Counted from the first letter of the stretch, positions 3,830 to 19,777 are shown. The stretch: 34,653 nt of DNA from a virus (IMGVR_UViG_3300022213_000002), one strand, 5' to 3'. Translations and numbers: made by a program. Notes: a model not told the origin generated them from the sequence alone.

Positions 3830-3831
3830 GC

Positions 3832-4728
3832 ATGGATTGGATCTACTTCGGGACGCCGGGCGACCTGTCCAGGCTGGCGCGCCCCCGGGACGGCATTGAC
3901 TCTCCGCGCGACCAGCGCACCAGCGCGGTGACGCTGGCGGGGGGTGGGGCCGTGGTGCACGCGCTTCGGGGCGGCCTGCGCACCTACACGCTCCGGTGGA
4001 GCAGTCTGGAGGACACCCACGGGACCACCCTGGCCGTCCTTGAGGAGTACGCCTATGGGCTACGGGGGTCGGGGCCATTCGCACTCCTGGACCCCGGCAG
4101 GCTGAACCTGTTGACTACCAATCAGTCGTCAGGCACTGGCGCACTGGCCGATACCACGGGATTCACGGCCAGTGCGGGCACCCTGGCCAGCTCGACGGCC
4201 GTGGCCCGACGTGGTACCCGGTCGTTGCTCTGGACGCTGGCGGCCGGCACCACGGCCACGCTGGCGCTCGATGCCGCGGCATCGTGGTGGCCCGGAACCC
4301 CCGCGATGGAGGGGGTGTCCTACGCCCTGTCCCTGCAGGCGCTGGGCGGCGGGACCGACCTGGTCGTCGAGCTGACCGCCCAGCTGCAGTGGCTGGACGC
4401 GGCCGGCGTCACGCTGAGCACGTCCAGCGGCACGCCGGTGTCGACCAGCGGGGACTGGACGGCCGTCTCGGCGGTCGCCGTCGCGCCGGCTGGCGCGGTC
4501 TACCTGCTGCCGCTGCTGGCGGTTACGGGTGCCACGGTGGGCGCCGGTGCCACGGTGGCGCTCGATGAGCTGCAGTTGGAGTCGGGGGGCGTGGCGTCGG
4601 GCTGGCGGCCGGGGACCGGGGTGTACCCCGTGGCCATCGTGGGCGGCATGGACGAGTCGCAGCCCTGGGCCGATCCCGGGTACCGCGAGGGCGTCACGCT
4701 GATCCTTCAGGAGGTGGGGTCGCAGTGA
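3832..4728 (+). CDS. Minor tail protein (distal tail protein-like by position)
   Basis: 298-aa ORF starting 3 nt after the tape measure stop. Confidence 0.75.
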   Translation: MDWIYFGTPGDLSRLARPRDGIDSPRDQRTSAVTLAGGGAVVHALRGGLRTYTLRWSSLEDTHGTTLAVLEEYAYGLRGSGPFALLDPGRLNLLTTNQSSGTGALADTTGFTASAGTLASSTAVARRGTRSLLWTLAAGTTATLALDAAASWWPGTPAMEGVSYALSLQALGGGTDLVVELTAQLQWLDAAGVTLSTSSGTPVSTSGDWTAVSAVAVAPAGAVYLLPLLAVTGATVGAGATVALDELQLESGGVASGWRPGTGVYPVAIVGGMDESQPWADPGYREGVTLILQEVGSQ

Positions 4729-7238
4729 TCGGGGCGACCGACGAGTTCGGCACCGCGCTGGGCGGCGGCGTGGTGCAGTGGGTGAATCCGATCCTGACCG
4801 CGGACTGGGCTAACGATGGCGTCCCGCCCAGCGGCGGCATTGACGACCTCACGCCGTACGTCGCGGAGGCCTGGGAGCTCGCGGTGGGGCTCGACGACGG
4901 CCTGCCGTCCGAGGTCACCGCACCGAACCAGCTCGGCCCCGCCGAGCTGGCCGTAACCCTCGCGGGTGCCCCGGAGTGGGGCACGCCGGCCGGCCGCTAC
5001 TTCGGGGCCGGTTACGCCAGCTCCCCCCTGGCCGGTTACGCGCGGGACGTGGCCCCGGTCGAATTCAGCGCGGGCGTGCGCACCGCGGCGGGGCCGGAAC
5101 GTCTGGCCGTGTTCAGCGGCACGATGGCCGGCGTCGACGGGGTCGACACGGCGACCCTACATGCCGTGTCGACGGCCCGGGGGAAGCTGGCGGCGCCGGT
5201 CGCGGTTCCGGTCGTGGCCGCCAAGTTGCAGGGGTACCTGTATGGCCTATGGGCCACCTGGCCGATCTCGTATCTGCTGCACCAGTGCGGGGTGTACCCG
5301 TCCCCTCCCGCGCGCGCCGGTTGTATCCTGCACATCCCGTTCCATGGCTCGCTGGTGCCATTCGCCCCGGTCCGGTCGACCGCTGGCGGCCAGCCACCTG
5401 CGTGGGTCTACCGGACCCGGGGCAGTGTGCCGAGCTACACGGTGGCGTCGGAACCCCGCTTCGTCCGTGGTCCGTGGGTGTCGGCGGTCAGCCTGCGCTC
5501 GACCACTGACGAACTCCTGCGGCTGTACATGGTGTCGCTGCACAATTCGAGCACGTTGCAGCTCATGAGCCAGTCCGCGTCGGCGGGCCGGGTCGAATTC
5601 TGGGTCAGGGGGGACGTGGTTGACGCGCCGATCTCCAGCGTGGGCGCACTCGACTACGCCGGTGCGTCAACCACGTTCGGGACGGCCCTGACCGAATTCC
5701 GGTACCGGTGCGACAGTACGGCCAGCGCCATCGTCACGGTGACCGCCAACCGCCACATGGAGGTCGTCCTCGATGACGGGGGCGGCCACACGCTCACCGT
5801 GACGTCGACCGACACCATCCCGGAGGACGGGGGCTGGTACTTCGTCGGGGCCGCCTGGTCGTTCTCCGGCAAGAAGGCGTGGGTCCACCTGGACGGGACG
5901 ACGGACAGCGACACGGACGCGTCGCTGTCGACGGCCGTGCTGTCCGCGACGTACGACGATCTGTCGACCACCATGCCGTCGCTCGCGTCCGTGCTCCCCC
6001 TGGCCGATTTCCAGGTGGGGAACACGAATCCCGATACCGATCCGTGGCTGAGTTCGTACGTGTGGGACCGGGGCGCGGACCTGTATCCGTCCACTCTCGA
6101 CTTGGCCCTGCTCAGCGACGTCGACCCGACCGAGGCATGGTCAGCGATCGCGGACTACCAGCAGGCGGAGACGGCATACGCGGGAATCCTCGCGTCGGGC
6201 ATGTACGTGTACCGCCCCCGCGGGTACTACGCCACCCCATCGGCGATGGCCGCGAACGTGGAGATGTCGTCGGAAACGGACATTATCGACATCGTCGGAT
6301 CGGTTGATCCATCGAAGATTCTCAACAGCATCACCGTGCAGTACACATCAAGATCCGTGAGCGTGGTCAGTTCGACCATCGCCGAGTATGCGGAGTCGCT
6401 GACCGTCGCGGGCGGCGCGACGGTCGACCTGGTCGTGTCCGGCAGCGAAAAGATCGTCTTCGCCAACGTCGGCACGGTCGCCAAGGTCGACAACAGCTCG
6501 GCCAGCCAGCCAGCGGCCCCGTACATCACCCTGTGCACCACCAGTGACGGGGCAGGTGCGTACGTCACGGACTCCTCCGTGACGGTGACGGTGACCAGCT
6601 ATTCGACGACGGCGGTGTTCGTCCGCATCGTCAACACCACACTGACCCCGCTCTATCTGACCAACGACAAGGGATGGTCTGCGTTGGCCCTGGCTGGATA
6701 CGCCGCAGTGAGCTCGTCGGCATCGACGACGGTGTCGGACCCGACGTCGGTGGCGGATCGCGGTCTGCGGTCCCTGTCCGTGAGTCTCAACGCGCCACAG
6801 ACCGAGCGGGCGGCCACCATGGCGGCCACGTGGATTCTGGACTTCCTGTGCAGGCCGCGGGTGTCGTTGCCGACCCTGACCGCCACGTGGGACCCCAGGG
6901 TCGAGCCTGGCGACCTGGCGCACATTGTTGACCCCGTGGTGACGGGGGTGGATGGCAACTGGCGCGTGCTCGGGTTACGGGTCACAGCCGATGGCGCACT
7001 GCATACCGTGGCCGTGACCACCGAGCCTCTGATCGGGGAGCTGGGCGTCGTGGTCCCGGATGCCGCCGCGGAGGGGGCGTATCCGGGCGGCGCGATCGTC
7101 GATCAGACCATCGTCGCCGCAGACGAGCAGGTGCTGACTCCCCGCGGCGCCATCGGGAAGGTGGTGCCGGACGGCGTGCCCGAGGGGTCCTACCCGGGCG
7201 GGGCCATTGTCGACTACACGGTTGTCGCGTCGGGTTGA
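4725..7238 (+). CDS. Minor tail protein (large tail-tip / receptor-binding candidate)
   Basis: 837-aa ORF whose GTG overlaps the upstream stop (GTGA). It has S/T-rich beta-type segments and a duplicated C-terminal motif VVPDxxxEGxYPGGAIVDxTxVA. Confidence 0.85.
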   Translation: MIGATDEFGTALGGGVVQWVNPILTADWANDGVPPSGGIDDLTPYVAEAWELAVGLDDGLPSEVTAPNQLGPAELAVTLAGAPEWGTPAGRYFGAGYASSPLAGYARDVAPVEFSAGVRTAAGPERLAVFSGTMAGVDGVDTATLHAVSTARGKLAAPVAVPVVAAKLQGYLYGLWATWPISYLLHQCGVYPSPPARAGCILHIPFHGSLVPFAPVRSTAGGQPPAWVYRTRGSVPSYTVASEPRFVRGPWVSAVSLRSTTDELLRLYMVSLHNSSTLQLMSQSASAGRVEFWVRGDVVDAPISSVGALDYAGASTTFGTALTEFRYRCDSTASAIVTVTANRHMEVVLDDGGGHTLTVTSTDTIPEDGGWYFVGAAWSFSGKKAWVHLDGTTDSDTDASLSTAVLSATYDDLSTTMPSLASVLPLADFQVGNTNPDTDPWLSSYVWDRGADLYPSTLDLALLSDVDPTEAWSAIADYQQAETAYAGILASGMYVYRPRGYYATPSAMAANVEMSSETDIIDIVGSVDPSKILNSITVQYTSRSVSVVSSTIAEYAESLTVAGGATVDLVVSGSEKIVFANVGTVAKVDNSSASQPAAPYITLCTTSDGAGAYVTDSSVTVTVTSYSTTAVFVRIVNTTLTPLYLTNDKGWSALALAGYAAVSSSASTTVSDPTSVADRGLRSLSVSLNAPQTERAATMAATWILDFLCRPRVSLPTLTATWDPRVEPGDLAHIVDPVVTGVDGNWRVLGLRVTADGALHTVAVTTEPLIGELGVVVPDAAAEGAYPGGAIVDQTIVAADEQVLTPRGAIGKVVPDGVPEGSYPGGAIVDYTVVASG

Positions 7239-7256
7239 CGCGGAAAGGATCATGAG

Positions 7257-7808
7257 ATGACCATCGTCGCGCCAGCCGCGGACCAGTACATTCGCGAGTC
7301 GTGGATCGACGCCATCACGGACGCGGTCAATGGCTACGGGGACCTTCAGCCGTACTACATTCCTACGTGGCGATACCGGACCACCGCGCAGACCGTCACC
7401 AACAGCACGACGCTGGTGGACGATGACGCGTTGTTCGTGACTGGCCTGCCGGCCGGAAGCGTATGGGATGTCCAGTGCCTGATTCGTTACCTTGGATACA
7501 CCTCCAACGACTTCAAGATCGGGTGGAGCGCTCCGGCCGGCTCGACCTTCCTATGGGAGATGAGGGGGGCTGAGTCGGGGGCGACGTCCGGGACCGCTCA
7601 GGGGTACTGGGGAGTCAACACGTTGGCGGGCACGGACACAGCCGGGGCCGTCACGGCCAGTGAGCTACACTGCGCTCCGTCCGGCCTGCTCACCGTCGGG
7701 GGCACCGCGGGCACCTTCCAGTTCCGCTTCGCGCAGGGCACGGCCGGGGCCGCCACCGATGCCAAGTGTCAGCCCGGATCGCGGATGCGACTGCTGCGGG
7801 TGGCGTAG
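7257..7808 (+). CDS. Minor tail / hypothetical structural protein
   Basis: 183-aa ORF with RBS AAAGGA, lying between the tail genes and the lysis genes. Confidence 0.7.
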   Translation: MTIVAPAADQYIRESWIDAITDAVNGYGDLQPYYIPTWRYRTTAQTVTNSTTLVDDDALFVTGLPAGSVWDVQCLIRYLGYTSNDFKIGWSAPAGSTFLWEMRGAESGATSGTAQGYWGVNTLAGTDTAGAVTASELHCAPSGLLTVGGTAGTFQFRFAQGTAGAATDAKCQPGSRMRLLRVA

Positions 7809-7856
7809 CGTCACCGGCCGGAGGAAGATTCAGGCGAGGGAATGGAGGGGGAGGCC

Positions 7857-8654
7857 ATGAGCCGCTGGACCGATCTCGCGACCTGGGTCGGGTCGCCCAA
7901 CCATGGCGGGGCCGCCGTCGAGCAGCGTGGCGTGGTGCTACACATCGCTGAGGGCGCCTATGCCGGCACGTTGGCCTGGTGCCAGAACCCGTCAAGTAAG
8001 GTGTCCGCACACTTCATAGCCGCCAAGGACGGCAGGGCTGCCCAGCTGGTCGACACCGACATTGCCGCGTGGACGCAGGTGGCCGGCAACGGTCGATGGC
8101 TATCGATCGAGTTCGAGGGTCACGCCGGCGACTCGCTGACACAACGGCAACTGGAATTCGCAGGCCGCGTGCTTGCCCGCGCGCATCAGCAGTACGGCGT
8201 GCCGTTGCAGCTGGTGGATAGCCCGACGGGCCGGGGTCTGGGCTGGCATGGCATGGGTGGCACGGCCTGGGGTGGTCACACCGGCTGCCCCGGGGCGCCG
8301 ATCGTGGCGCAACGCGGCCAGGTCATCGGCCTGGCCGAACAGATCATCGACGGAGGGACGATCATGCAGCTCACAGGACCGGACCCGTGGGGCGACGGTA
8401 GCCCCAACGAGCAGGCCGCAGAGCTCCGCAACGTCCATGCAGCCATCATGAGTGGCTACCAGGACGACAAGGCCAAGCCGGAGGGCGTCATCGCGCGTCT
8501 CGGGCGGATCGAGAGCGTGCTGACCGCGGCCGGCGGCAGCCCGGACATCGCTCCGGCCATGACGGCCCTGGCCGGACTAGAGTCCGCGCTGAACCGCATC
8601 GAGACCGCGCTGAAGGCGGCCGGCCAGGCGCAGGCGGGTCCCCTGCGGGGCTAG
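7857..8654 (+). CDS. Endolysin, N-acetylmuramoyl-L-alanine amidase (amidase_2/PGRP-like); alternative start at 7842
   Basis: Motifs VVLHIAEG, SAHF, WLSIEFEG and GGHTGCPG are typical of amidase_2 zinc amidases. GGAGG-rich RBS precedes 7857. Confidence 0.85.
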   Translation: MSRWTDLATWVGSPNHGGAAVEQRGVVLHIAEGAYAGTLAWCQNPSSKVSAHFIAAKDGRAAQLVDTDIAAWTQVAGNGRWLSIEFEGHAGDSLTQRQLEFAGRVLARAHQQYGVPLQLVDSPTGRGLGWHGMGGTAWGGHTGCPGAPIVAQRGQVIGLAEQIIDGGTIMQLTGPDPWGDGSPNEQAAELRNVHAAIMSGYQDDKAKPEGVIARLGRIESVLTAAGGSPDIAPAMTALAGLESALNRIETALKAAGQAQAGPLRG

Positions 8655-8708
8655 TGGCGGGCACCCCCCTCTGATCGGCCGTAAGATCGACCACAGGAGG
8701 GTGATCTA

Positions 8709-9056
8709 GTGAAGCACATTTCGGACTGGCTGGTGGCCGCCGCGGTGACCGCCGCCGCGGCGGCACTACTCGGGAGAATGGTCGTCAAGATGATCGTGTG
8801 GGGTAACCGGACGATGAAGCGGCTCAATCTCTTCCTGGGAGAGTGGCTGGGCGACAAGGACAGCGGCCAGCCCGGTTTTCCGGCACGCCTGGCCGCCGTC
8901 GAGCAGGGCGTCTCCAGCGTCGATCGGATCATCAGGGAACAGCTGCTCCACAACGGCGGGAGCAGCCTGGCCGACCAGATGACGCAGGTGCATCGCGCGG
9001 TGGGCGCCGACGCCGGCCCCGTGGTGCGCAACGGGGGCGCGGGAGGGACCACGTAG
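8709..9056 (+). CDS. Holin-like membrane protein (one N-terminal TM helix, C-terminal helical region)
   Basis: GTG start after RBS AGGAGGG. N-terminal hydrophobic segment WLVAAAVTAAAAALLG. It lies directly downstream of the endolysin. Confidence 0.65.
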   Translation: MKHISDWLVAAAVTAAAAALLGRMVVKMIVWGNRTMKRLNLFLGEWLGDKDSGQPGFPARLAAVEQGVSSVDRIIREQLLHNGGSSLADQMTQVHRAVGADAGPVVRNGGAGGTT

Positions 9057-9077
9057 GGAAGGTCCTGTTCGACATCG

Positions 9078-9116
9078 TTGGAGCGCCCCCACCCTGCACG
9101 GGTGGGGGCGCTCCAA
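9078..9116. terminator. Bidirectional intrinsic terminator hairpin (17-bp perfect stem, 5-nt loop)
   Basis: ttggagcgcccccaccc / tgcac / gggtgggggcgctccaa, between convergent genes ending at 9056 (+) and 9134 (-). Confidence 0.85.
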
Positions 9117-9133
9117 CGTGCAGGGCTGTGCGG

Positions 9134-9610
9134 TCATTCCCGGGTGGTGCGGTTGCCCCGGCGGTCACGGCGATCTGCCCCCAGCTCCGAATCCACCCGG
9201 TCCGCCGACCACATTGCAGGCGCGAAGCCCGGATTGGTGGGGAGGAGTGCGCGGCGCCTGGCCCAGGCGGCGGCGGATCCGAGCCTGGACCGCCGCAGCT
9301 CCGGATCGAGAAGCCCGTCCGGCCCGTACAGGAGCCTGGCCAGGACCGGCGTTGAATACTGGTCTGTGCGGGTGACGGTGGTGCTGCCGCCGCGCCAGAG
9401 GTGCTGCCAGGTGCTGGGCTCGCAGACGAGGCCGTAGTCAGCGAGGGTGTTGACGAGGCAGGATGCGGCGTTGCCGCCGGACGCTGCCGAGGTGCTGATG
9501 AGGTCCAGGCCGAGGTTGACGCGGGCCCGCTGCGTGTCGAGCTCCCGGAGCGTGTAGCCGTTGGGGTCCCATCCGGCGAGGGCGGAGCGGACCCGGTCGG
9601 TGATGTTCAT
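9134..9610 (-). CDS. Hypothetical protein, 158 aa (second gene of the insulated cassette)
   Basis: ATG at 9610 overlaps the upstream stop (ATGA). The R/P-rich N-terminal extension in the track (to 9889) overlaps the upstream gene in another frame and was rejected. No motif recognised. Confidence 0.7.
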   Translation of the reverse strand: MNITDRVRSALAGWDPNGYTLRELDTQRARVNLGLDLISTSAASGGNAASCLVNTLADYGLVCEPSTWQHLWRGGSTTVTRTDQYSTPVLARLLYGPDGLLDPELRRSRLGSAAAWARRRALLPTNPGFAPAMWSADRVDSELGADRRDRRGNRTTRE

Positions 9611-9885
9611 GCCGCGAGCCCGGCGGCGCATTCGATGACCTGCGAGGTGAGCTGCTCCGGCGTGATGTCGTAGAGGGCGTCGTCGTCGACGGTCAGGCCG
9701 AGGGCCGCGGCGATGGCGGCCATGGCCTTGTCGACCACGTCGAGCTGCTCGCTGGTGGGCTCGCCGTGGAGGATGGCCCGGTCGCCGGTGATTTCTGCGC
9801 GGAGGGCGCCGCTGATGGTAACGAATCCGCTGGTCCAGTCGGGGTTGGCTGGGAGGCTGGCGATGGCCTGGGCTGCTGTTGTCAT
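9607..9885 (-). CDS. Hypothetical acidic protein, 92 aa (first gene of the insulated cassette, apparently leaderless)
   Basis: ATG at 9885 lies 6 nt downstream of a -10-like hexamer. High GC3. No motif recognised. Confidence 0.7.
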   Translation of the reverse strand: MTTAAQAIASLPANPDWTSGFVTISGALRAEITGDRAILHGEPTSEQLDVVDKAMAAIAAALGLTVDDDALYDITPEQLTSQVIECAAGLAA

Positions 9886-9891
9886 GCATCT

Positions 9892-9921
9892 ATAATGCGT
9901 GAGGGTCACGCAGTATGTCAA
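9892..9921 (-). promoter_or_regulatory. Sigma-70/SigA-type promoter: -35 TTGACA (9921-9916), 18-nt spacer, -10 CATTAT (9897-9892)
   Basis: Read on the minus strand. The predicted transcription start coincides with the A of the ATG at 9885, giving a leaderless mRNA. Confidence 0.6.
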
Positions 9922-10011
9922 GGTGGGCACCACTTCCGGGTCGGCCAGGTCTACGGACGGGCGACCCGCAGAGCGCGGGCCTGGCCGATCTGCGCGGAGC
10001 GCAGTAGACTA

Positions 10012-10031
10012 CAGTCGACATCAGTCGACAT
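10012..10031. promoter_or_regulatory. Tandem 10-bp repeat CAGTCGACAT x2 (each contains the palindrome GTCGAC); operator-like
   Basis: Two exact adjacent copies one helical turn apart, 17 nt upstream of the GTG at 10049. Confidence 0.5.
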
Positions 10032-10048
10032 CAACCAGGGAGGGCACC

Positions 10049-10258
10049 GTGGGCCAGCACTCAGGCGGCGGCACAGCGGATCACGGCAAGGTCGATCGGC
10101 AGTACAGCGGCAAGCACCGGCACGGACAGGCCGCGGGCACGCGGGCGCAGCGTGACGCGGAGGCCCGTGACGCCGATTCGGCGTCACGGGGCGGGTACGC
10201 GCTCGGCAATCGGCCCGATCGCCCGCACTCGCCCAACGGGTGGGATTCGGGCCGATAG
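10049..10258 (+). CDS. Hypothetical small basic protein, low complexity and likely disordered, 69 aa
   Basis: GTG start 5 nt after RBS AGGGAGGG. GC3 about 80 percent. G/R/H/D/Q-rich. Opposite in orientation to the surrounding arm. Confidence 0.6.
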   Translation: MGQHSGGGTADHGKVDRQYSGKHRHGQAAGTRAQRDAEARDADSASRGGYALGNRPDRPHSPNGWDSGR

Positions 10259-10283
10259 GCCGGCCGGGCACACTGACACGACA

Positions 10284-10315
10284 GAGCCCCCCATTCGACA
10301 TCGGGTGGGGGGCTC
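10284..10315. terminator. Bidirectional terminator hairpin (10-bp stem gagcccccca/tggggggctc, 12-nt loop)
   Basis: Lies between convergent genes ending at 10258 (+) and 10343 (-). Confidence 0.7.
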
Positions 10316-10342
10316 CGTCGTGAGCAACCAGGTGGCGCCAGC

Positions 10343-10945
10343 CTACCAGCGGTGCGGCAGGCCGGACGTGTTCTGGCCGTGGTGATACCAGTTCCAGGTC
10401 CGAGCGGGCAGGTGGGAGATCCTCGCGCCCGCGGCCAGGCAGCGCTGCGTGAAATCCCAATCCTCGCCGGCGTAGAGCCGATCTGGCGAGGTGAGCGTCT
10501 CCGGCGCAACGGTACGGAACCCAACCGCCTGCGCCAGCTCGGTGCGGACCAGCACGGTGATGGTGGTCTGCACGGGATGCTCGGGATCCCACGGCTGGCC
10601 GAACACCTCCGGCCGCGGATCGGTCCCGCCGATCACGTGATACCACGGGTAGACGTAGTCCGCTCCCGTGGTTTCCGCATGGACCAGGCACATGTCCAGG
10701 TGTCCGGGCAGGAACTCGTCATCATCGTCAAGGAACGCCGTCCACTCCGTCTGGGCCCCGTCCAGCGCAGCCTGCCTGGTCGCCGCAGCACCTCGCCGCT
10801 CCGCGTCGAGCGAGAGGGACGACATAACCGGCACGGTGTCCGCGACCGTTTGCGACATCACGGACCGTACAGCCCGGTTGAGCAGCATGGAGCGCGGAGG
10901 GATGGTGGGGATGCAGACGGTGATCCCTGGCCGAAGTCCCGTCAT
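10343..10945 (-). CDS. Glycosyltransferase, family 2-like (GT-A fold)
   Basis: N-terminal ITVCIPTIP motif and acidic DxD-type motif FLDDDDEF. ATGA overlap with the upstream gene. Confidence 0.8.
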   Translation of the reverse strand: MTGLRPGITVCIPTIPPRSMLLNRAVRSVMSQTVADTVPVMSSLSLDAERRGAAATRQAALDGAQTEWTAFLDDDDEFLPGHLDMCLVHAETTGADYVYPWYHVIGGTDPRPEVFGQPWDPEHPVQTTITVLVRTELAQAVGFRTVAPETLTSPDRLYAGEDWDFTQRCLAAGARISHLPARTWNWYHHGQNTSGLPHRW

Positions 10946-11697
10946 GACTGCTCCCCCTCCTGCTCCTTGCGCATGCGCTCAACTTCGGCCAGCTCGGCCA
11001 GGCCCCGCTCCCCGGCCGGCACGCGTGCCAGCACGCGCCGCACCGCGTAGTAGTGCGGGTCGGTAACGCTCATGAGCTTGCCGCAGTCCGGGCATGCACC
11101 GTATTGCCTACCGGTGGACGCGGCGTGGTCGCACAGGCACACGCGGTGCGCGTTCTGGATCATGCTGCATCCGTGGTGGTACAGACCGGGCTCACCCCGC
11201 CACCAGCGCTCCCGGGGGGCGTCCCATTGGTGCGAAACGTTGACCGGGTCGCCCTTACGGTGCCGGCCACCGCACCAGGAGCAGCGGGTGAGCAGCGTGC
11301 GGCGTAAGGACTGGAGCGGCCCGACCTGAATCCGCCAGTGGTGGACGTGCCACTGCCAACCATGCAGGACCCTGGTCCGGTAGGTGCCATCAGGCTGCGG
11401 TACTCGGACGTAGTGCCTGCAGACGTCGCCGGAGTCGCGGCCGCCCGGCTCGCGGTGCCAGACCGTGATCATGCTCGGCCAGTAGTAACCGCGACCGGCC
11501 AGCGTCCAGAACGGCGTCCACGACCGCGGGCGCCACCAGGGGAACGGGTTGGCGCCGTGGTCACGATCGCAGTCCGGTACGCAGTCGTGGTGCAATCGGA
11601 ACCGCCACCGCGCCCGCCCCGGCTTGGCGTCATGCATCCTACTGCGCTGCGGCCAAGGGCGCCGGATCTCAAACGCCACCACCAGGGGGTCATGCAC
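10942..11697 (-). CDS. Hypothetical Trp/His/Cys-rich protein, 251 aa
   Basis: Translationally coupled at both ends inside the glycosyltransferase operon. Cys clusters CSWCGG and CPDCGK. No family recognised. Confidence 0.75.
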   Translation of the reverse strand: MHDPLVVAFEIRRPWPQRSRMHDAKPGRARWRFRLHHDCVPDCDRDHGANPFPWWRPRSWTPFWTLAGRGYYWPSMITVWHREPGGRDSGDVCRHYVRVPQPDGTYRTRVLHGWQWHVHHWRIQVGPLQSLRRTLLTRCSWCGGRHRKGDPVNVSHQWDAPRERWWRGEPGLYHHGCSMIQNAHRVCLCDHAASTGRQYGACPDCGKLMSVTDPHYYAVRRVLARVPAGERGLAELAEVERMRKEQEGEQS

Positions 11698-12358
11698 GGC
11701 TGTTGATCCTCTCAGCTAGAACGACCTGGAACACCATGTCGGTGCCCGGTGCCTTGACGGTCCTGTGGACCAGGGGGTCCCACCCGGACCAGTGCAGCAG
11801 CGCGCGGTACGCGCCAATGGACCAGGCCCAGGCGTGGCAGGCGTCCGCCGTCCGGATCGTCTCGCTGGCCGGCGAGGAGCACACCAGATATCGAGCCCGA
11901 GGGCGTTGCGCCAGCCGGTGCAGCACCTCGCCAGGCTCGGCCAGGTGTTCCAGCACCTCCGTCATGACGTAGATCTCCGCGTCCGGCAACGTGCTGCCAT
12001 GGATGCTGCACCGGCCACTGAGGAGCATTTCGACAAAATCGCCCGCGATCGCGGGTACTCTGCGCTCCCGCCATCCCTCGCGGTTGCTCGGCTGGAAATC
12101 GATTCCGATGATCGACACCCGCCCATCCCGCAGCAGCTGCAGGAGTCCGCCGTCACCGCATCCGAGGTCAACCAGCAGCGGCGCGTAGTCGGACGGCGCG
12201 TCCTCACGGAGGTACCCGACCGCAAGACGGACCATGTCGCGTGCGGCGTACAGGCGTGGCCGATGCGCGTCCTGCTCAAGGTGCGGGGCCCGTTCGCGGC
12301 CGGCGTGAAACTCGCGGGTCGAGACGTGCTCGCGACCGGGCACGCGGTACTCATCCAC
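11690..12358 (-). CDS. Class I SAM-dependent methyltransferase
   Basis: Motif I LLVDLGCGDGG, followed by an acidic residue after a beta strand (IIGIDF). GTG start overlaps the upstream stop. Confidence 0.8.
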   Translation of the reverse strand: MDEYRVPGREHVSTREFHAGRERAPHLEQDAHRPRLYAARDMVRLAVGYLREDAPSDYAPLLVDLGCGDGGLLQLLRDGRVSIIGIDFQPSNREGWRERRVPAIAGDFVEMLLSGRCSIHGSTLPDAEIYVMTEVLEHLAEPGEVLHRLAQRPRARYLVCSSPASETIRTADACHAWAWSIGAYRALLHWSGWDPLVHRTVKAPGTDMVFQVVLAERINSRA

Positions 12359-13106
12359 CAGACATCACACCCTTGATGATCTCGACGTCGGTCCTGAGCT
12401 GCCCGGCCTCGTACGCGTGCCAGGCGTGCTGGTCCCGGCCCGACAGTGCGTCCACACGGTCGTAGCCGGCGTCCCGCGGCGCCTTACCCACCAGCGGGTG
12501 CATGTGCTCAACGAGCACCTCCGGCAGGTAGGTCAGGCAGTCCGCCTGCTGCCCCCACGCAAGCCAGGCGTTGTCCACGTACAGGTGCTGGAGCACGGGC
12601 GGGGCCATGCACCCGAGCGCACGCACCAGGGACGACCGGATCACAACCTGCGTCGGGAGCGCGGCCCCGTGTACCCCGTCGTTCCCGTAGGCGATGGCGC
12701 GGCCCGGCTGCGTCACAGCGTCCAGCAGCTGCCGGTCCCATCCGGCGGTCCGGGGCCGGTGGTCGTCGCCCATGAACATCAGGGCCTCCGGGGCCCACGG
12801 GGTCGCGCCGGTCGTCAGGTATCGCGCCATGGCGTTGAGCGGATCGACCATGCCTGGCCGGCCGTCCGGAGGCGCGACATGTAGCCCGACCCACCAGCAC
12901 TCCGCGACCACATCGTGATACTGATGCGCGTCCGGGTCGTTGGCGTCGAGCACGAGCACCAGCCTGGTACTCGACATCCCGCGGGTGAGCGCCATCTTTC
13001 TGACCAGCTGCCGCACACTGTCCGGCCGGCCACGGGTCGGCACGATGACGCACAGGCCGCCACGTTCCCCTGTCAGATCCATGCTTCCCTCCATGTCCCC
13101 CTCCAT
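12351..13106 (-). CDS. Glycosyltransferase (GT-A-like); start uncertain among three close ATGs
   Basis: CVIVPTRGRP motif near the N-terminus and LVLDANDPD acidic motif. Repeated GGAGGG-ATG units at the 5' end. Confidence 0.75.
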   Translation of the reverse strand: MEGDMEGSMDLTGERGGLCVIVPTRGRPDSVRQLVRKMALTRGMSSTRLVLVLDANDPDAHQYHDVVAECWWVGLHVAPPDGRPGMVDPLNAMARYLTTGATPWAPEALMFMGDDHRPRTAGWDRQLLDAVTQPGRAIAYGNDGVHGAALPTQVVIRSSLVRALGCMAPPVLQHLYVDNAWLAWGQQADCLTYLPEVLVEHMHPLVGKAPRDAGYDRVDALSGRDQHAWHAYEAGQLRTDVEIIKGVMSGG

Positions 13107-13134
13107 CCCTATCTAATGATGAGTTGTGTCCACA

Positions 13135-14205
13135 CTACAGCCTGGCGTCACGGATGGCCATGGCCCGGCGGTACGCCCGCTCCCACGCGAACCAGTGATC
13201 CCCGACGAGGCACCCACGCGCCCACGCAAGCCCCCGAATGCGGAGGGATGTGAAGTCGTTGCCGGAGTACGCCAACTCGATCCTCGACCGCACGGCCACC
13301 CTCCAGCCGAGGGGCGATCCGGCCCCGGGGATGCGCATCCCCGGGGCCGGACTGGTCTCGTACGGCCCGACGCCGGAGGCGATCCACGGGATACCGAGTG
13401 CCGCATACTCAAGGATCTTGATGTCGGACTTGCTCCGATTGAACGCATTGTCGACTAGGGGCGCCAACCCGATGGTGAAATCGATGCGCCGAAGATGCGC
13501 CGCGGTGGTGTGCAGCCAGCCGGATTCTCGCAGGCCGGGGACCTTGTGACCGGCCAGCACGCTGCGTGCCCCCTGGCCGATCAGGTGGAGCCCGGCCGCA
13601 CCCCGCCGCATCGCGTGCGCGACCCCTGCCGCGGCGCCACTGCCGCGCCAGTCCGCCAGGTGGGTCGGGCTGCCGGCCCACCCGACGATCGGAACGTCGA
13701 GCACGGGCTGGGCGAGGCGGGCGTCCCCGATGTCCACCAGCCAGGATGGCACGCAGTTGGGTAGCACCACCACATTCGGGTTGTACCGACGCGCGACTTC
13801 GGCCAGGGGGTACGTGGACACGGTGACCAGGTCTGCAGCAGCCAGATTGCGCTCGAAGTTGGCGCGCTGCGCCCGGAACTCGCCGTACGCGGGGTTGTCC
13901 GGCGGCACGCTGAACGGATCGTCGTCGATTTCGTACACCAGGGCCGGCCTCATTGGCCCCGGTCGCGCGGCCAGGGAGGACCAGAGGGCGGACGGCCCCG
14001 GCAGGTGGACCCTCTGGCCGATCAGCACGTCCGGCCTGTCTGGCGCGGCCTGGCCCCACCGCTGATCGGCCAGGTTGGTCCCCATGGTGATCGTGTGGCC
14101 GTGCTGCCGTAGTTGCTGCAGCGGGAGGGCGATGCGGTACCACCCGCACCCCTGTTCATCCGCCATCCACCCTGTGATCCTCATGGGTCGCTGGAACACG
14201 CTCAT
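13135..14205 (-). CDS. Glycosyltransferase (GT-B-like, family 1/4-type architecture)
   Basis: 356-aa ORF from the ATG at 14205 after RBS GAAGGTGGA. Two Rossmann-like halves, with a VGWAGSPTH motif in the C-terminal half. Confidence 0.7.
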   Translation of the reverse strand: MSVFQRPMRITGWMADEQGCGWYRIALPLQQLRQHGHTITMGTNLADQRWGQAAPDRPDVLIGQRVHLPGPSALWSSLAARPGPMRPALVYEIDDDPFSVPPDNPAYGEFRAQRANFERNLAAADLVTVSTYPLAEVARRYNPNVVVLPNCVPSWLVDIGDARLAQPVLDVPIVGWAGSPTHLADWRGSGAAAGVAHAMRRGAAGLHLIGQGARSVLAGHKVPGLRESGWLHTTAAHLRRIDFTIGLAPLVDNAFNRSKSDIKILEYAALGIPWIASGVGPYETSPAPGMRIPGAGSPLGWRVAVRSRIELAYSGNDFTSLRIRGLAWARGCLVGDHWFAWERAYRRAMAIRDARL

Positions 14206-14296: not shown

Positions 14297-14875
14297 TCAC
14301 GCGAACGGGTCCTTGGCGGCCAGGAAGTGCTGCCAGTAGGTGCGGGCGATCGCCTTCTCCTCCGGCGTACTCACGGCCAGGAAGTACGGCGGGTTCTTCT
14401 GCGGATCCGCAGCCTGGCCGATGGACAGTCGCCCAACCACCATCGAGCCGGCGGTCTGGCCGGCGGCGCGCCGCTTGAGCGCCTCGCGGCACTGGTTGAC
14501 GACGCCGACCGCGGACAGGTACATGGCGTCGATCCGGTAGGGGATCTGGCTGACCTGCGTGTGGGGGATGGCGGGGCGCTTGTTGGGCGCGCCGCCCCAA
14601 TGCAGCGGACCACCATCGAGAACCACAACATCGGCCGTCATGCGATCGACCATCTCTCCCGGCCGCTGGTACGCCGGAACGGTCTCGATCCTGCTCGGGA
14701 TGATGAGCAGCAGGCGGCCGGCGTCGCTCACGCCGTCCGCCCGGTCGTACAGGTCGCCCATCCGGGGGCGGTTCGACTTGGGCGCCGGATCGCTGAACGG
14801 GTCATCTCCGCTGGGCGCCGCAAATGGATCACTGGCCGGGCTGGCCTGCGTCCGTGCTGCAAACGGGTCGGTCAT
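14297..14875 (-). CDS. Hypothetical protein with three N-terminal DPF motifs and a C-terminal DPFA
   Basis: 192-aa ORF with RBS AGGAG 7 nt before the ATG. Begins MTDPFA..SDPFA..DDPFS and ends KDPFA. Confidence 0.8.
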   Translation of the reverse strand: MTDPFAARTQASPASDPFAAPSGDDPFSDPAPKSNRPRMGDLYDRADGVSDAGRLLLIIPSRIETVPAYQRPGEMVDRMTADVVVLDGGPLHWGGAPNKRPAIPHTQVSQIPYRIDAMYLSAVGVVNQCREALKRRAAGQTAGSMVVGRLSIGQAADPQKNPPYFLAVSTPEEKAIARTYWQHFLAAKDPFA

Positions 14876-14886
14876 CGAGTGCTCCT

Positions 14887-14913
14887 GTCGAGTACGAGTG
14901 TCGAGTGTCGAGT
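14887..14913 (-). promoter_or_regulatory. Clustered heptamer repeats ACTCGAC (minus-strand sense) abutting the RBS of the 14875 gene
   Basis: gtcgagt occurs 3 times, plus one acgagt variant, within 27 bp immediately upstream of AGGAG. Confidence 0.45.
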
Positions 14914-14928
14914 AGGTGGGGCCGGGTG

Positions 14929-14983
14929 GGGTGGGGCATTCAGCAACCTAGGGCGACCAACCGGCCATCGCCATGCCCCACCC
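14929..14983 (-). ncRNA. Long hairpin (11-bp stem GGGTGGGGCAT/ATGCCCCACCC enclosing a 5-bp nested stem)
   Basis: Perfect complementary arms at 14929-14939 and 14973-14983. Nested GGCGA/TCGCC stem inside the loop. Confidence 0.5.
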
Positions 14984-15084
14984 TCTTGCCTGCCGTGCGA
15001 CCCGCGCCTCCGGCCGCGCGAACCGGAGACTTGCACCTGTGATCTTGCCTGGTAGTCACGGCCGGTACCCCGCCGCTCTATCCG

Positions 15085-15184
15085 TGCCCCGGTCGGGATT
15101 TGAACCCGAATCCTGCTGTCATTGTTCACCGCATGACGAGCGGTGGTTGCGCAACGCCACTCTTCCCATTTGAGCTACCGGGGC
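15085..15184 (-). tRNA. tRNA-like module S1 (100 nt), non-canonical: normal acceptor, D and T arms but an oversized central region
   Basis: Acceptor GCCCCGG/CCGGGGC, U8, D arm GCTC-AAATGGGAA-GAGT, T arm TCGGG-TTCAAAT-CCCGA, discriminator A. There are 49 nt between the D and T arms instead of about 23. Best central stem-loop is CACCGC-TCGTCAT-GCGGTG. Confidence 0.5.
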
Positions 15185-15187
15185 TCC

Positions 15188-15263
15188 TGGTGACGATACC
15201 GGCCAGCCAATTGCGGGTCGCCAGCGCCGATGCCGTCCCGCGGGACGGCCGGCCGGTATCGCC
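15188..15263 (-). ncRNA. Structured module S3 (76 nt, ends ACCA): 13-bp terminal helix plus an internal 7-bp/4-nt-loop hairpin
   Basis: GGCGATACCGGCC pairs with GGCCGGTATCGTC (one G-U pair). Internal hairpin GCCGTCC-CGCG-GGACGGC. It abuts S2 (0 nt gap) and S1 (3 nt gap). No T arm. Confidence 0.4.
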
Positions 15264-15356
15264 GTGGGCGGGCGGGAATCGAACCCGCGTCGGGCGGGTA
15301 GCGTTCGCCCGATCCCCCCAGGGAGCCGCTCTAGCCAGTTGTGCAACTGGCCCCAC
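15264..15356 (-). ncRNA. tRNA-like module S2: perfect T arm plus two long hairpins, no canonical cloverleaf
   Basis: T arm GCGGG-TTCGATT-CCCGC followed by CCGCCCA-C. Hairpins TCGGGCG-AACGCTACC-CGCCCGA (15290-15312) and GCCAGTT-GCAC-AACTGGC (15334-15351). Confidence 0.4.
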
Positions 15357-15388
15357 CCCACTCCCGCGCCGCGAACCGCCGGAGTGGA

Positions 15389-15413
15389 ACACCGCGAACG
15401 CTACCCGCGGTGT
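15389..15413 (-). terminator. 8-bp-stem hairpin just after the exonuclease stop; its 9-nt loop is complementary to the loop at 15297-15305
   Basis: ACACCGCG-GGTAGCGTT-CGCGGTGT (minus-strand sense), starting 9 nt after the TGA at 15425-15423. Confidence 0.5.
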
Positions 15414-15422
15414 CCAGTCATG

Positions 15423-17066
15423 TCAACTCGCCGCGGGGGCGGGCACGAATCCGCGCGCGCGATGCGCTTCCGCGTACGCCTGCAACTCGACTGACCAGGC
15501 GCCGCGCGCCGCCGCGTCGTGCCAGATCCGCGACAGGTCCGCCCGCTCGCGTGCGGTGTCGATGCGCCCGCGCCAGTCATCGGGCGCGGGCTCGGGCTCG
15601 GGCGCGGGCTCGGGCGCGGGCTCGGGCGCGGGCGGGGGGGCGGGTACCCGCGTCGCCCGCCTGCCCGTGGGCGCATCGGGCGCGGGCGCATCGCACGTGG
15701 GACAGATGCCCGCGCTCGCGGGCATGCCCGCTCCGCACCAGATGCACTGCCCGCTACCCGCCTGCGCGGGCATGGGGGCGAGCGCGGCGTTGAGTCCGCA
15801 CTCCGGGCACAGGGTGCCGGCTGCCCCGACCCCCGGCCGCACCCCGCACTGCGGGCACTGCGCGCTCGCCTGTCCTGTCTGCGCGGGCACTGCGGCGGGC
15901 ACTGCGGCGGGTACCCGCTCGTCGCCCGCGCACGCGGGACAGCGACCGGTGCCGTTCATGTCGCCCGGATTGGTCAGTTCGCCGCACCCCGTGCACCGCT
16001 TGCGCTTGCGCGCGCGCGGCGGGCGGGTGTCCATCGGCGCGGGCACGGGCGTGAGTATCGGATCGATCGCGCGCCTAAGGGGGAGTGCCTCCGCGATGAA
16101 TGCCTGCGCGGCCGCCTCAATGTCAGGGGGGACCGTGGACGCTGAGACCGGTGCGGCTCCGGCTGTGTCCGCCCCAGCCGGTTCCGGCCGGAGCGGCGCG
16201 CCGATCAGGCCCGCCTTGCGCATGTTGCGCACCTCGACCGCCCGCACAGCCGCCATCCGACCGGCCCTGATGTCGACCGGGTAGAGCGCGAAGTTCTGCG
16301 GCTCGCCCGCCGGCGCGTGCAGGACGTAGGCAACGTCAGAGCGGGTTGGCGCCGCCTCGATGTACTCGTCGCCTACCCACCAGTGTCGCATCATCTGGTA
16401 GATGGCAAGCTGGACCGACACGTAGAGACCCATGTATCGCAGGTTCTTGCCGGTCTTGATGTCGATGATGGCGCGACTGGCGTCACCACCGAGCGTCCCC
16501 ACGCGGTCGACGGTGCCCGCAGTGCCGCCACGGGGGTTGGCTGCGGTCAGATCGGCATCGAGCGTGGGCACGACACCGATGCGCTCGATACCGCCCGGTT
16601 CGAAACCGATCCGGTGTTCGGCCAGCAGTGCCCGGTACCGGTCCAGGTCGGGCTGGAAGCGCGGCGGGCACGCGACATCGGCTGCAGCCTCGCCCTGCTG
16701 GTCGTTGATCTGGTAGAGCTTGTGCATCGCGGTGCCCAGGTCGCGCCGCTCGTTGGCGCCGGCCGCGTGCTGCGCCGCGGCCACGATCTCGTTGAAGCGA
16801 TCCTTGTCGGTGGCGTAGTCCGTGGTGGACGCGGACAGGTACAGGCTGGGCGTGAGCGCGATGCCCCGGACTGCCATGGCCGCCTGCCACGCGGACAGGG
16901 AGTAGGTGTCGTCGAGCGTCTTGGCCAGGGTCGTCGCCCTGGTCCAGGAGACCAGCCGGCCGGTCTCCGGGTGCGGCAGGAGGTAGCGTCCCCACCGGTC
17001 GCGCTGGATCTTGCCCTCGGCGCCCTCAAGTGGCGCCCCGGGGTCGCCGAGTGGATCAAATGTCAT
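15423..17066 (-). CDS. PD-(D/E)XK (RecB/Cas4-like) exonuclease fused to three zinc ribbons, a PAPE linker and a small C-terminal domain
   Basis: Nuclease motif AIIDIKTGK with an upstream GTVDRVG. Three CxxC...CxxC pairs (CTGCG..CPAC, CPQCG..CPECG, CIWCG..CPTC). PAPEPAPEPAPEPEPAP linker. Confidence 0.8.
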   Translation of the reverse strand: MTFDPLGDPGAPLEGAEGKIQRDRWGRYLLPHPETGRLVSWTRATTLAKTLDDTYSLSAWQAAMAVRGIALTPSLYLSASTTDYATDKDRFNEIVAAAQHAAGANERRDLGTAMHKLYQINDQQGEAAADVACPPRFQPDLDRYRALLAEHRIGFEPGGIERIGVVPTLDADLTAANPRGGTAGTVDRVGTLGGDASRAIIDIKTGKNLRYMGLYVSVQLAIYQMMRHWWVGDEYIEAAPTRSDVAYVLHAPAGEPQNFALYPVDIRAGRMAAVRAVEVRNMRKAGLIGAPLRPEPAGADTAGAAPVSASTVPPDIEAAAQAFIAEALPLRRAIDPILTPVPAPMDTRPPRARKRKRCTGCGELTNPGDMNGTGRCPACAGDERVPAAVPAAVPAQTGQASAQCPQCGVRPGVGAAGTLCPECGLNAALAPMPAQAGSGQCIWCGAGMPASAGICPTCDAPAPDAPTGRRATRVPAPPPAPEPAPEPAPEPEPAPDDWRGRIDTARERADLSRIWHDAAARGAWSVELQAYAEAHRARGFVPAPAAS

Positions 17067-17184: not shown

Positions 17185-17221
17185 GAATGTCCTCTAATGT
17201 CCTCACGGTGAAGGTACTGCC
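17164..17221. repeat. 58-bp direct repeat copy A (53/58 identical to 17800-17857)
   Basis: Contains GAGGACAT twice, then ATGATCCACATGA (minus-strand sense), that is an RBS plus the first four codons MIHM. Confidence 0.9.
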
Positions 17222-17820
17222 CGCCCTCCGTCCCCATCGACCCGGGCGTCCCCGCTGACCCGGGCGCTCCCGCTGACCCGGGCGTCCCCGCTGACCCAGG
17301 CGTCCCCGCTGACCCGGGCATTCCCGCTGACCCGGGCGTCCCCGCTGACCCAGGCGTCCCCGCCGACCCAGGCGTCCCCGCCGACCTGGGCATTCCCGCT
17401 GACCTGGGCGTCCCCGCCGACCCAGGCGTCCCCGCTGACCTGGGCATTCCCGCTGACCTGGGCGTCCTCGCCGACCCAGGCGTCCCCGCCGACCCAGGCG
17501 CCCCCGCTGACCTGGGCATTCTCGCTGACCTGGGCATTCTCGACGACCCGGGCGCCCCCGCTGACCTGGGCATTCCCGCTGACCTGGGCGTTCCCATCGA
17601 CCCAGGCGTCCCCGGTCTGCGACAGGTTGTCCGGGCCGGCCACGATGCCGCCCAGGTGACCGGTCTTTACGTCGTCCCCGATGTCCCGCAGTGCCCGGAG
17701 TCGGAACAGGCCGCTATCCCCGTCCGCGATCAGCTCGTACTTGTCGATCATTTGCACTCCCAGCCTGGTTGCCAACGTCGCGTCCGCGGCGCCCCGGGCG
17801 AGCCCGGTCATGTGGATCAT
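17203..17820 (-). CDS. Hexapeptide-repeat (left-handed beta-helix type) protein
   Basis: N-terminal non-repeat domain ([43 protein letters not shown]) followed by about 20 units of [GS][DN]A[QWR]V[SG]. Confidence 0.8.
17236..17600. repeat. Tandem 18-bp DNA repeats (about 20 units, e.g. gacccgggcgtccccgct), the coding repeats of the hexapeptide protein
   Basis: Contiguous imperfect 18-mers with no spacers. All three minus-strand frames stay open through the array. Confidence 0.9.
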
Positions 17821-19727: not shown

Positions 19728-19777
19728 ATACGCAAGCGCCAGACCACGCCGCGCGGCGTGGTCTGGCGCTTGCGTAT
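19728..19777 (-). terminator. 50-bp perfect palindrome (23-bp stem, GCGC loop) immediately after a stop codon
   Basis: atacgcaagcgccagaccacgcc gcgc ggcgtggtctggcgcttgcgtat. It is followed on the minus strand by TTGACA (19724-19719) upstream of the helicase gene. Confidence 0.8.

Follow-up and report, generated by a model that had tools for sequence, protein, structure and literature searches.

The 34,653-nt viral sequence IMGVR_UViG_3300022213_000002, referred to here at its full length as the window, carries on its minus strand two small overlapping genes, p92 and p158, in a short region (9078–10315) between the lysis genes and the end of a leftward gene arm. In a sister phage, both genes are replaced, together with their promoter and a terminal hairpin, by a different two-gene operon of the same layout. 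On balance we lean toward reading 9077–9957 as an exchangeable, self-regulated accessory operon with p158 as its regulator, placed at an exchange hotspot where the two arms of the genome converge. Three orphan genes between hairpins are thereby turned into a defined slot of 0.9 kb, whose breakpoints are precisely located and of which two natural alleles share one plan.

Replacement of a two-gene operon in a sister phage

The 90% cluster of orf69, the plus-strand gene of the region, holds variants from other samples, one of which lies on a 7.8-kb Joint Genome Institute (JGI) contig, L035; a shorter contig from another sample (L036) carries the same allele as L035. In a blastn comparison, L035 matches the window at 98.1% identity over 3675–9076 and at 96.5% identity over 9958–11655. 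Between these blocks lie 881 bp in the window (9077–9957) and 677 bp in L035, which share no similarity. That the genes might be swapped at this position between related phages, as the initial annotation of the region envisaged, is therefore borne out: flanks that are 96–98% identical enclose a different two-gene operon. The same annotation had described a three-gene cassette bounded by two hairpins. Since only 9077–9957 is replaced in L035, the exchangeable unit consists of hairpin 1, p158, p92 and their promoter, that is, of two genes; the backbone shared by both phages, 98% conserved, includes orf69, the upstream region with the tandem repeat, and hairpin 2. An autonomous, moron-like module is a fair description of the p92–p158 pair, which is exchangeable and has, as read from the sequence, its own promoter and hairpin, but orf69 lies outside it.

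The two alleles follow a common layout. The first gene encodes an acidic protein (p92, with an isoelectric point (pI) of 4.05, in the window; a Cys-rich protein of 131 aa and pI 5.1 in L035) and the second a basic one (p158, pI 9.7, in the window; a 69-aa protein of pI 9.5 in L035, with a helix-turn-helix (HTH)-like motif recognized from a sequence pattern and weak hits). The genes overlap by 4 nt in the window and by 14 nt in L035. The promoter is TTGACA-18-CATTAT in the window and GTTACA-18-TATACT, a 9/12 match, in L035; the ATG lies 6 nt and 7 nt past the −10 hexamer, respectively, and no Shine-Dalgarno sequence precedes the first gene of either allele, so that a leader of 0–2 nt is predicted. 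Each promoter has a palindrome in its spacer adjoining the −10 hexamer, at the same place but of different sequence (TGCGTGAnnnTCACGCA in the window; CTTCACnGTGAAG, CTTCAC-n-GTGAAG, in L035), and in both alleles a hairpin, short in L035, lies past the second gene. The palindrome changes along with the second gene between the two phages, whereas the TCGACATC repeats of the region, described below, are constant. From this pattern, each second-gene product would recognize the palindrome of its own promoter, and the factor that reads the CGACATC repeats would come from the backbone or from the host.

A 10-nt direct repeat, TTCGACATCG (9068 and 10294), was considered as a target-site duplication around a 1.2-kb insert. 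We rejected this because the right breakpoint is at 9957/9958 and the second copy of TTCGACATCG lies in the backbone.

Promoter, candidate operator and hairpins of the module

The promoter of the pair, TTGACA and CATTAT separated by 18 nt with a predicted start on the ATG at 9885, was recognized in the initial annotation. It is the best sigma-70-type match of the genome (10/12), with one other site at 9/12. The −10 hexamer and the A of the ATG are separated by 6 nt, and p92 is the sole operon-first gene without the GGAGG-type ribosome-binding site that nearly all other genes have. As this spacing fits and the ribosome-binding site is absent, transcription is predicted to start on the A of the ATG and to give a leaderless mRNA. 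A 17-bp palindrome lies in the promoter spacer, where it covers the first two bases of the −10 hexamer, and appears as a candidate operator for p158. Neither this palindrome nor a p158-specific motif was found at the other promoters of the genome, including the divergent region at ~21.8–22.1 kb.

The two strong hairpins described at first are present at slightly corrected coordinates (Table 1) and are strong on both strands, but the terminator scan calls neither of them and neither has a U-tract; the hairpin of the L035 module is likewise uncalled. Hairpin 1 folds at −54.5 kcal/mol on the plus strand and −50.8 kcal/mol on the minus strand (z ~−7). For the two hairpins on either strand, the folding energies range from −43 to −54 kcal/mol with z = −5.6 to −7.7, 0 of 200 shuffles fold as well, and both are among the five strongest hairpins of the genome. 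Hairpin 1 is probably a factor-independent stop for the p92–p158 transcript and for the converging late operon, and hairpin 2 is probably a stop for orf69 and the leftward arm. Hairpin 2 is kept in L035, where a change of A to G at 10283 repairs a stem mismatch.

p158 and its remote homologs

The minus-strand pair of p92 and p158 with an ATGA overlap (9607–9610) was seen at first reading, and both genes have a clear coding signal. GC content at third codon positions (GC3) and codon score are 0.89 and 0.48 for p92 and 0.88 and 0.25 for p158, in the range of the other genes, and p92 appears translationally coupled to p158 through the overlap. None of the proteins p92, p158 and orf69 has a match in Pfam, PHROGs, PADLOC or NCBIfam; as anticipated, no structural or housekeeping family is hit, and no toxin, defence or lysogeny signature was found in the module with Pfam, NCBIfam and PADLOC. 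Searches with tblastn of the three proteins against 50,697 phage genomes and against plasmids gave no match, and in a word-index search of 5.8 billion proteins p158 and p92 each matched nothing but themselves. The statement that the three proteins hold no recognizable motif is thus upheld by the libraries, but it does not extend to the fold of p158, which from its model is very probably a DNA-binding regulator.

We searched 1.84 billion representative proteins exhaustively with HMMER and obtained nine remote homologs of p158. With their alignment, the AlphaFold2 model of p158 reaches a predicted local distance difference test (pLDDT) score of 89 and a predicted TM-score (pTM) of 0.77, compared with a pLDDT of 39 from the single sequence. 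In the model, residues ~1–83 form an alpha/beta domain with the order helix, two strands, helix, strand, helix, strand, the most conserved feature of which is a loop S-x-A-x-G-G-N-A-A where the long helix begins. Residues ~84–150 are arranged as strand-helix-helix-strand-helix and are probably a MerR/excisionase-like winged helix; the protein also has a basic tail with a GNRT motif that is common to most relatives. Among the predicted viral structures of BFVD, the better local matches of the model, weak as they are, agree with this in being small phage proteins annotated as HTH DNA-binding proteins or excisionases.

The homologs bear on this assignment. P0011 matches MerR_1 at the position aligned with the C-terminal half of p158 (23.4 bits, against a Pfam cut-off of 21.6), P0009 has weaker winged-helix hits, an hhalign comparison of the two C-terminal types in the family gives a probability of 75.6%, and PHROGs returns weak MerR-like, excisionase and regulator hits on family members. 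The two domains also occur in other combinations. P0006 joins the N-terminal domain, 45% identical to that of p158, to a different C-terminus, and P0010 carries the N-terminal domain behind an N-terminal extension. P0005 (L033 2643–2993, 116 aa), encoded directly after a 287-aa gene, is the winged-helix domain with its basic tail standing alone, which indicates that the C-terminal domain is an independent module. The C-terminus of P0006 was considered by eye as a ribbon-helix-helix plus zinc ribbon, but Pfam confirms neither, with a sub-threshold DZR_2 match of 16.2 bits against a cut-off of 27. From the homologs and the model taken together, it is likely that p158 is a DNA-binding regulator composed of a new N-terminal domain and a divergent winged helix of the MerR/excisionase type. 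The N-terminal domain is represented by ~10 clusters among 1.8 billion representative proteins; it has a confident model and no match in PDB, and in each case it is joined to some predicted DNA-binding module.

Homologs of p158 are found at L003–5, L022–24, L026/27, L028, L029, L030, L032 and L033/34, in DNA that resembles that of phages or integrative elements: L028 also encodes tail proteins and a GDSL lipase, and L032 a tyrosine integrase. The p158 relatives often lie just past a terminator-like hairpin or palindrome, and none of the motifs of the window is conserved near them. The trio of genes does not co-occur: at the ~8 p158-family loci there is no homolog of orf69, and a homolog of p92 is found at one (L025). 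A ~165-aa protein that has a membrane-like segment and, at its C-terminus, a zinc ribbon is encoded one or two genes upstream of p158 homologs in L003 (1090–1581), L026 (4882–5385) and L032 (4159–4566). The L003 and L026 copies are 78% identical, the L032 copy is a weak match and the window has none. This protein may be a second recurrent neighbor of the p158 family.

p92 and its single homolog

p92 has a pI of 4.05 and a net charge of −10. Its one known homolog, a 93-aa protein encoded at 236–517 of the JGI contig L025, is 41% identical over 88 residues, and the alignment begins at Met1, which supports the start codon of p92. The L025 gene is the first past a terminator and a long inverted repeat and lies two genes upstream of P0006, which shares just the N-terminal domain with p158. 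Both known genes of the p92 family thus sit beside a gene of the p158 family, the common part being the N-terminal domain, to which p92 therefore appears genetically tied. A relationship of p92 to that domain as a paralog was rejected (BLASTP E 0.22; hhalign probability 0.5%).

orf69 and the CGACATC repeats

The features of the region are listed in Table 1. The initial annotation described orf69 as a basic, low-complexity protein with a strong ribosome-binding site, and so it is, but the start codon is the GTG at 10049 and not 10050, and the coding signal is weak: the codon score of 0.15 is the best of the six frames and stands at the bottom of the gene range. orf69 is 98% identical in L035, with four differences, one synonymous and three non-synonymous. 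Outside its own 90% cluster, no homolog was found in the four family libraries or by tblastn against the phage genomes. The product is probably disordered, and the coding status of orf69 is uncertain.

Table 1 Features of the convergence region and the adjoining genes
Feature	Position	Strand	Remarks
Amidase_2 lysin	7842–8654	+	Rightward arm
Small membrane protein	8709–9056	+	End of rightward arm
Copy A of CGACATC core, TTCGACATCG	9068–9077	+	Adjoins left breakpoint of the swap
Hairpin 1	9076–9118		Perfect 19-bp stem, 5-nt loop; in swapped segment
Exchangeable module	9077–9957		Hairpin 1, p158, p92, predicted leaderless promoter; from blastn against L035
p158	9134–9610	−	158-aa basic protein; coding signal
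p92	9607–9885	−	92-aa acidic protein, first gene of operon; coding signal
Sigma-70-type promoter	9892–9921	−	Near-consensus match; −35 TTGACA 9921–9916, 18-nt spacer, −10 CATTAT 9897–9892
17-bp palindrome	9896–9912		TGCGTGA-ggg-TCACGCA; in promoter spacer; candidate operator
TAGACT, possible −10 of orf69	10005–10010	+	By eye, uncalled by scan; identical in L035
Tandem CAGTCGACATC x2	10012–10032	+	10-nt period; between putative −10 and ribosome-binding site of orf69; backbone
Ribosome-binding site of orf69, AGGGAGGG	10037–10044	+	Strong; 4 nt before GTG
orf69	10049–10258	+	69 aa, basic (pI 10), Gly/Arg/Asp/His-rich, low-complexity; called by gene finders
Three CGTGACGC copies	10150–10190		Inside orf69; include palindrome with 13-nt arms (10164–10190)
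Hairpin 2	10277–10322		22-nt arms, 86% complementary; backbone
Copy C of CGACATC core, TTCGACATCG	10294–10303	+	In loop of hairpin 2

The operator-like tandem repeat upstream of orf69 is present as first described but is not an operator of p158. It is 100% conserved in L035, which is without p158, and L035 shows no change in the putative −10 (TAGACT) or in the orf69 ribosome-binding site either. The core TCGACATC occurs in four plus-strand copies in the non-coding DNA of the 1.27-kb region; an 8-mer attains that number in 36 of 2000 dinucleotide shuffles of the region (1.8%), and ten further copies of TCGACATC lie elsewhere in the genome, inside genes and on both strands. CGACATC is kept at all four sites in the same orientation in both phages (window 9069, 10015, 10025 and 10295; L035 5417, 6158, 6168 and 6439). 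Around copy A, 6 of 21 bases differ in L035 and the CGACATC core itself is intact. We also considered that p158 might bind the tandem TCGACATC direct repeats as an excisionase would; this was rejected, because the repeats are unchanged in a phage without p158.

The CGTGACGC cluster inside orf69, with its 13-nt-arm palindrome, was considered as an operator or RNA element. It is probably unconstrained, since the left arm of the palindrome is broken in L035 by two uncompensated changes; Rfam gives no match there.

Genome context

The window is the near-entire contig. Its first and last 127 bases (1–127 and 34527–34653) are identical and the European Nucleotide Archive (ENA) record of the contig is a rotation of the window sequence, so the genome is a complete circular assembly of ~34.5 kb. 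The GC content of the phage genome is 69%, and NCBI places the contig in a Gemmatimonadota metagenome-assembled genome. Library annotation of the called genes shows a tailed phage with two arms. The rightward arm starts at ~22.1 kb, crosses the window end and finishes at 9056; it encodes an AAA_25 protein, a RusA-like protein, a GDSL lipase, terminase, portal, MuF, capsid and tail proteins, the Amidase_2 lysin and the small membrane protein. The leftward arm extends from ~21.9 kb down to 10343, with helicase, exonuclease, three glycosyltransferase and methyltransferase genes. The region sits exactly where the arms converge, as the initial annotation had it, between the amidase and membrane-protein genes that end at 9056 and the GT2 glycosyltransferase gene, the last of the leftward arm, that ends at 10343.

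Among the called genes of this complete genome there is no integrase, recombinase, partition, excisionase or lysogeny family. A 547-aa zinc-ribbon protein was considered as a hidden serine integrase and rejected, as its match to phrog_466 (E 5e-61) makes it an exonuclease. The cumulative GC skew peaks at the region; an origin of replication is nevertheless unlikely there, because such a peak is expected where convergent arms meet. At the DNA level nothing resembling the phage was found among the 50,697 deposited phage genomes, in which the tested proteins are also without a match. Synteny with IMG/VR relatives is likewise lacking: a 251-aa neighbor protein has 13 relatives, none sharing other genes, the amidase has one that is distant and non-syntenic, the tail protein has none, and the exact backbone pattern is absent.

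Several other features of the genome were noted. The end of the leftward arm (10343–14205, minus strand) holds three glycosyltransferase genes, an S-adenosylmethionine (SAM) methyltransferase gene and the gene of the Cys/His/Trp-rich 251-aa protein, whose relatives lie on 13 otherwise unrelated IMG/VR contigs; the glycosyltransferase/methyltransferase block recalls the virion-glycosylation clusters of actinophages. One of the glycosyltransferase genes contains a perfect palindrome with 17-nt arms (13318–13351), and a perfect 50-nt palindrome (19728–19777, 25-bp stem) lies just upstream of the helicase gene. The 548 nt that separate the exonuclease gene from the gene that follows (14875–15423, minus strand) include tRNA-like sequence. 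The Rfam tRNA model matches 15085–15184 over its full length with 42.6 bits, but the match is spread over 100 nt and ARAGORN calls no tRNA; a second T-arm-like stretch, GGGTTCGATTCCCGC, lies ~100 nt upstream. These sequences may be tRNAs with insertions or introns. At 17203–17820 (minus strand), in an unusual place among replication genes, is the gene of a 205-aa protein built from beta-solenoid repeats of the YdcK type (E 4.5e-22), which also gives bactofilin-like and hexapeptide matches. The GDSL-type lipase gene (26091–26978) lies just upstream of the terminase gene; a lipase 29% identical to it is encoded at 8221–9030 of L028, amid tail and lysis genes of an unrelated phage contig that bears a p158 homolog.

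Proposed operation of the module and alternative explanations

In the accessory-operon reading that we favor, host RNA polymerase would start at the near-consensus promoter, on the ATG of p92, to give a leaderless mRNA. This single message would yield p92 and, via the ATGA overlap, p158, and transcription would stop at hairpin 1. p158, likely as a dimer, would bind the 17-bp spacer palindrome and so limit the expression of its own operon. p92 would be either the payload or a partner that works via the N-terminal domain of p158. Such a scheme is that of anti-CRISPR acr–aca operons and similar counter-defence loci, in which a small new effector is expressed from a strong early promoter that a regulator encoded downstream then closes. 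Of the functions put forward in the initial annotation, immunity is unlikely, since no integrase, partition or lysogeny gene is found in a complete genome, and a toxin–antitoxin-like role is weakly disfavored, whereas an anti-defence or host-modulating cargo with its own regulator would be the best-fitting layout. That p92 is in fact a counter-defence or host-modulating payload, by analogy with such loci, is a tentative suggestion.

A bolder form of it, which we hold to be rather speculative, makes the slot a counter-defence hotspot of a high-GC phage lineage, with p92 and the 131-aa Cys-rich protein of L035 as new inhibitors of host immunity and p158 as a new class of Aca-like autoregulator. 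In that case p92 might be an acidic DNA mimic, its acidity being a resemblance to DNA-mimic inhibitors and nothing further, and the N-terminal domain of p158 would be one that is joined to interchangeable DNA-binding domains (a MerR-like winged helix, a possible ribbon-helix-helix, an N-terminal HTH). A slot with this signature is how anti-defence and other host-interaction genes were found in cultured phages. If this is a counter-defence locus, guilt-by-association would be extended to a phage lineage without cultured relatives, and a p158-family gene could mark further anti-defence genes; if it is not, the slot still illustrates cleanly how phage genomes exchange modules.

Several observations weigh against the self-regulated accessory operon. 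Two alleles of the slot are known, so that the term hotspot rests on a single exchange. The module does not stand out in composition (GC 0.70, against 0.69 for the genome), and its codon scores are in the range of the other genes. p158 itself matches no HTH model of Pfam or PHROGs; a profile search of sequences and a Foldseek search of the model against PDB gave nothing significant, and the local matches in BFVD, to small phage HTH/excisionase proteins, have target-normalized TM of ~0.5 and all E > 0.09. The HTH of the 69-aa protein of L035 is likewise based on a sequence pattern and weak hits. The chance of a palindrome with 7-bp arms is ~0.09 per 30 nt in this genome. Finally, most p158 homologs are without an adjacent p92 (~7 loci) and several are followed, not preceded, by other genes, so the order of cargo and then regulator is not general for the family.

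Other explanations share part of this evidence. Two small overlapping genes, one acidic and one basic, behind a promoter with a palindrome would suit a toxin–antitoxin-like, abortive-infection or exclusion pair, in which one product harms the cell or a competing phage and the other neutralizes it and represses the operon. The combination of the family's N-terminal, partner-side domain with varied DNA-binding domains is also known from antitoxins, p92 and that domain have diverged to a similar degree (41% and 45% identity) at the sole other locus that has both, and modules of this kind are often exchanged at hotspots. We nevertheless regard such a pair as improbable. No toxin, antitoxin or defence model of Pfam, NCBIfam or PADLOC is matched, neither profile search nor Foldseek against PDB reveals a HicB-like or other antitoxin fold, the presumed DNA-binding protein is basic and the putative toxin strongly acidic, which is the reverse of the usual pattern, and the ~7 p158-family loci without a p92 homolog show that the two are not obligatory partners. 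An ordinary phage-internal regulator pair, serving for instance the timing of middle or late genes and thus part of the core programme, is no more probable. It would agree with the likeness of p158 to a transcription factor, with a composition and codon usage that are those of the genome, and with the occurrence of p158 homologs among small genes that form long runs on one strand, as is typical of early regions, one of the homologs lying near an integrase; but a phage with 96–98% identical flanks carries unrelated genes instead of both, and the palindrome or a p158-specific motif is absent at the other promoters of the genome.

That there is nothing special about the region seems scarcely probable either: the pair would be orphan genes ending the leftward arm, the promoter match, palindromes and repeats would be due to chance, the hairpins would be the usual stops of convergent operons, and orf69 would be spurious. 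p92 and p158 do run in the direction of the leftward arm, about one 9/12 promoter match is expected per 17 kb, and orf69 has weak coding statistics, the composition typical of false open reading frames in a GC-rich genome and an internal palindrome that is not conserved. Chance does not readily account, however, for a precise replacement that moves promoter, genes and hairpin together, for an independent allele that repeats the promoter geometry and the position of the palindrome, for a −10-to-ATG spacing suited to a leaderless start where a ribosome-binding site is absent, or for CGACATC being kept at four sites in both phages despite nearby substitutions. Very unlikely is a lysogeny or immunity switch with p158 as repressor, the divergent orf69 as its Cro-like antagonist and the repeats as shared operators. 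The divergent units do have repeats in their 163-bp spacer, and the leftward gene is predicted to be leaderless, as are several actinophage repressors. Against the switch stand the complete genome without an integrase, recombinase, partition or excisionase family, the product of orf69, which has no HTH and looks disordered, and hairpin 2, which directly follows orf69, so that this gene heads no operon; the tandem repeats, identical in a phage without p158, are not its operators.

Comparison with known systems

The accessory operon resembles a moron in the sense of Hendrix and colleagues, an additional gene, equipped with a promoter and a terminator, that separates two genes which are neighbors in related phages. 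At the sequence level the operon has its own promoter and terminal hairpin, is placed past the late/lysis operon and ahead of the next feature of the backbone, and differs between phages that are otherwise 96–98% identical. Unlike a moron, it shows replacement instead of presence or absence, has the composition of the genome and a hairpin without a U-tract, and consists of two genes, one of them a putative regulator. With type II toxin–antitoxin systems of the HicAB, HigBA and MqsRA types it shares a two-gene overlapping operon, a promoter palindrome, and a second product made of an N-terminal globular domain and a predicted C-terminal DNA-binding domain that varies among relatives; it differs in having no toxin or antitoxin match by sequence or fold, a strongly acidic first product, and a partner that is missing at most loci of the family.

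The predicted strand-helix-helix-wing order of p158 residues ~84–150 is that of MerR and of small MerR-like or excisionase-type (HTH_17) phage proteins, the homolog P0011 passes MerR_1, and the candidate operator lies within a promoter spacer of 18 nt, longer than optimal. p158 is unlike MerR in that the winged helix is C-terminal, behind an unrelated alpha/beta domain, without a long coiled-coil or effector domain, in that it falls below every MerR and HTH_17 threshold, and in that the spacer of MerR promoters is 19–20 nt. As to the CGACATC repeats, the stoperators of cluster A mycobacteriophages are short asymmetric repressor sites in one orientation in intergenic DNA. The repeats are like them in having an asymmetric 7–8-nt core in four copies of one orientation, in non-coding DNA near the ends and starts of transcripts. 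They are unlike stoperators in being confined to one 1.3-kb region and not genome-wide, the 8-mer otherwise occurring ten times within genes, on either strand, and in that p158 is excluded as the binder by their constancy in L035.

The Aca regulators of anti-CRISPR (acr) loci, which are HTH or ribbon-helix-helix proteins, bind inverted repeats overlapping the promoters of acr operons (PMC13551039, PMC6765145). As in acr–aca operons, a strong promoter is followed in one operon by a small, relative-less, often acidic protein and then by a putative DNA-binding regulator, an inverted repeat overlaps the promoter, and alternative cargoes occupy a fixed place between conserved phage genes (PMC6765145, PMC13551039). 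Here, unlike at acr loci, which typically retain the aca gene, the regulator is swapped along with the cargo, the mRNA is predicted to be leaderless, and p158 belongs to no HTH family of Pfam, PHROGs or NCBIfam and has an additional N-terminal domain that is undescribed. Membership of p158 in a described Aca family (Aca1–14) is unsupported, as it has no HTH or ribbon-helix-helix hit in these libraries. The element as such belongs to a known kind, that of accessory operons which can be exchanged and which have, as read here from the sequence, a promoter, a stop and a regulator of their own; what is new are its two proteins, both of which stand outside the described families.

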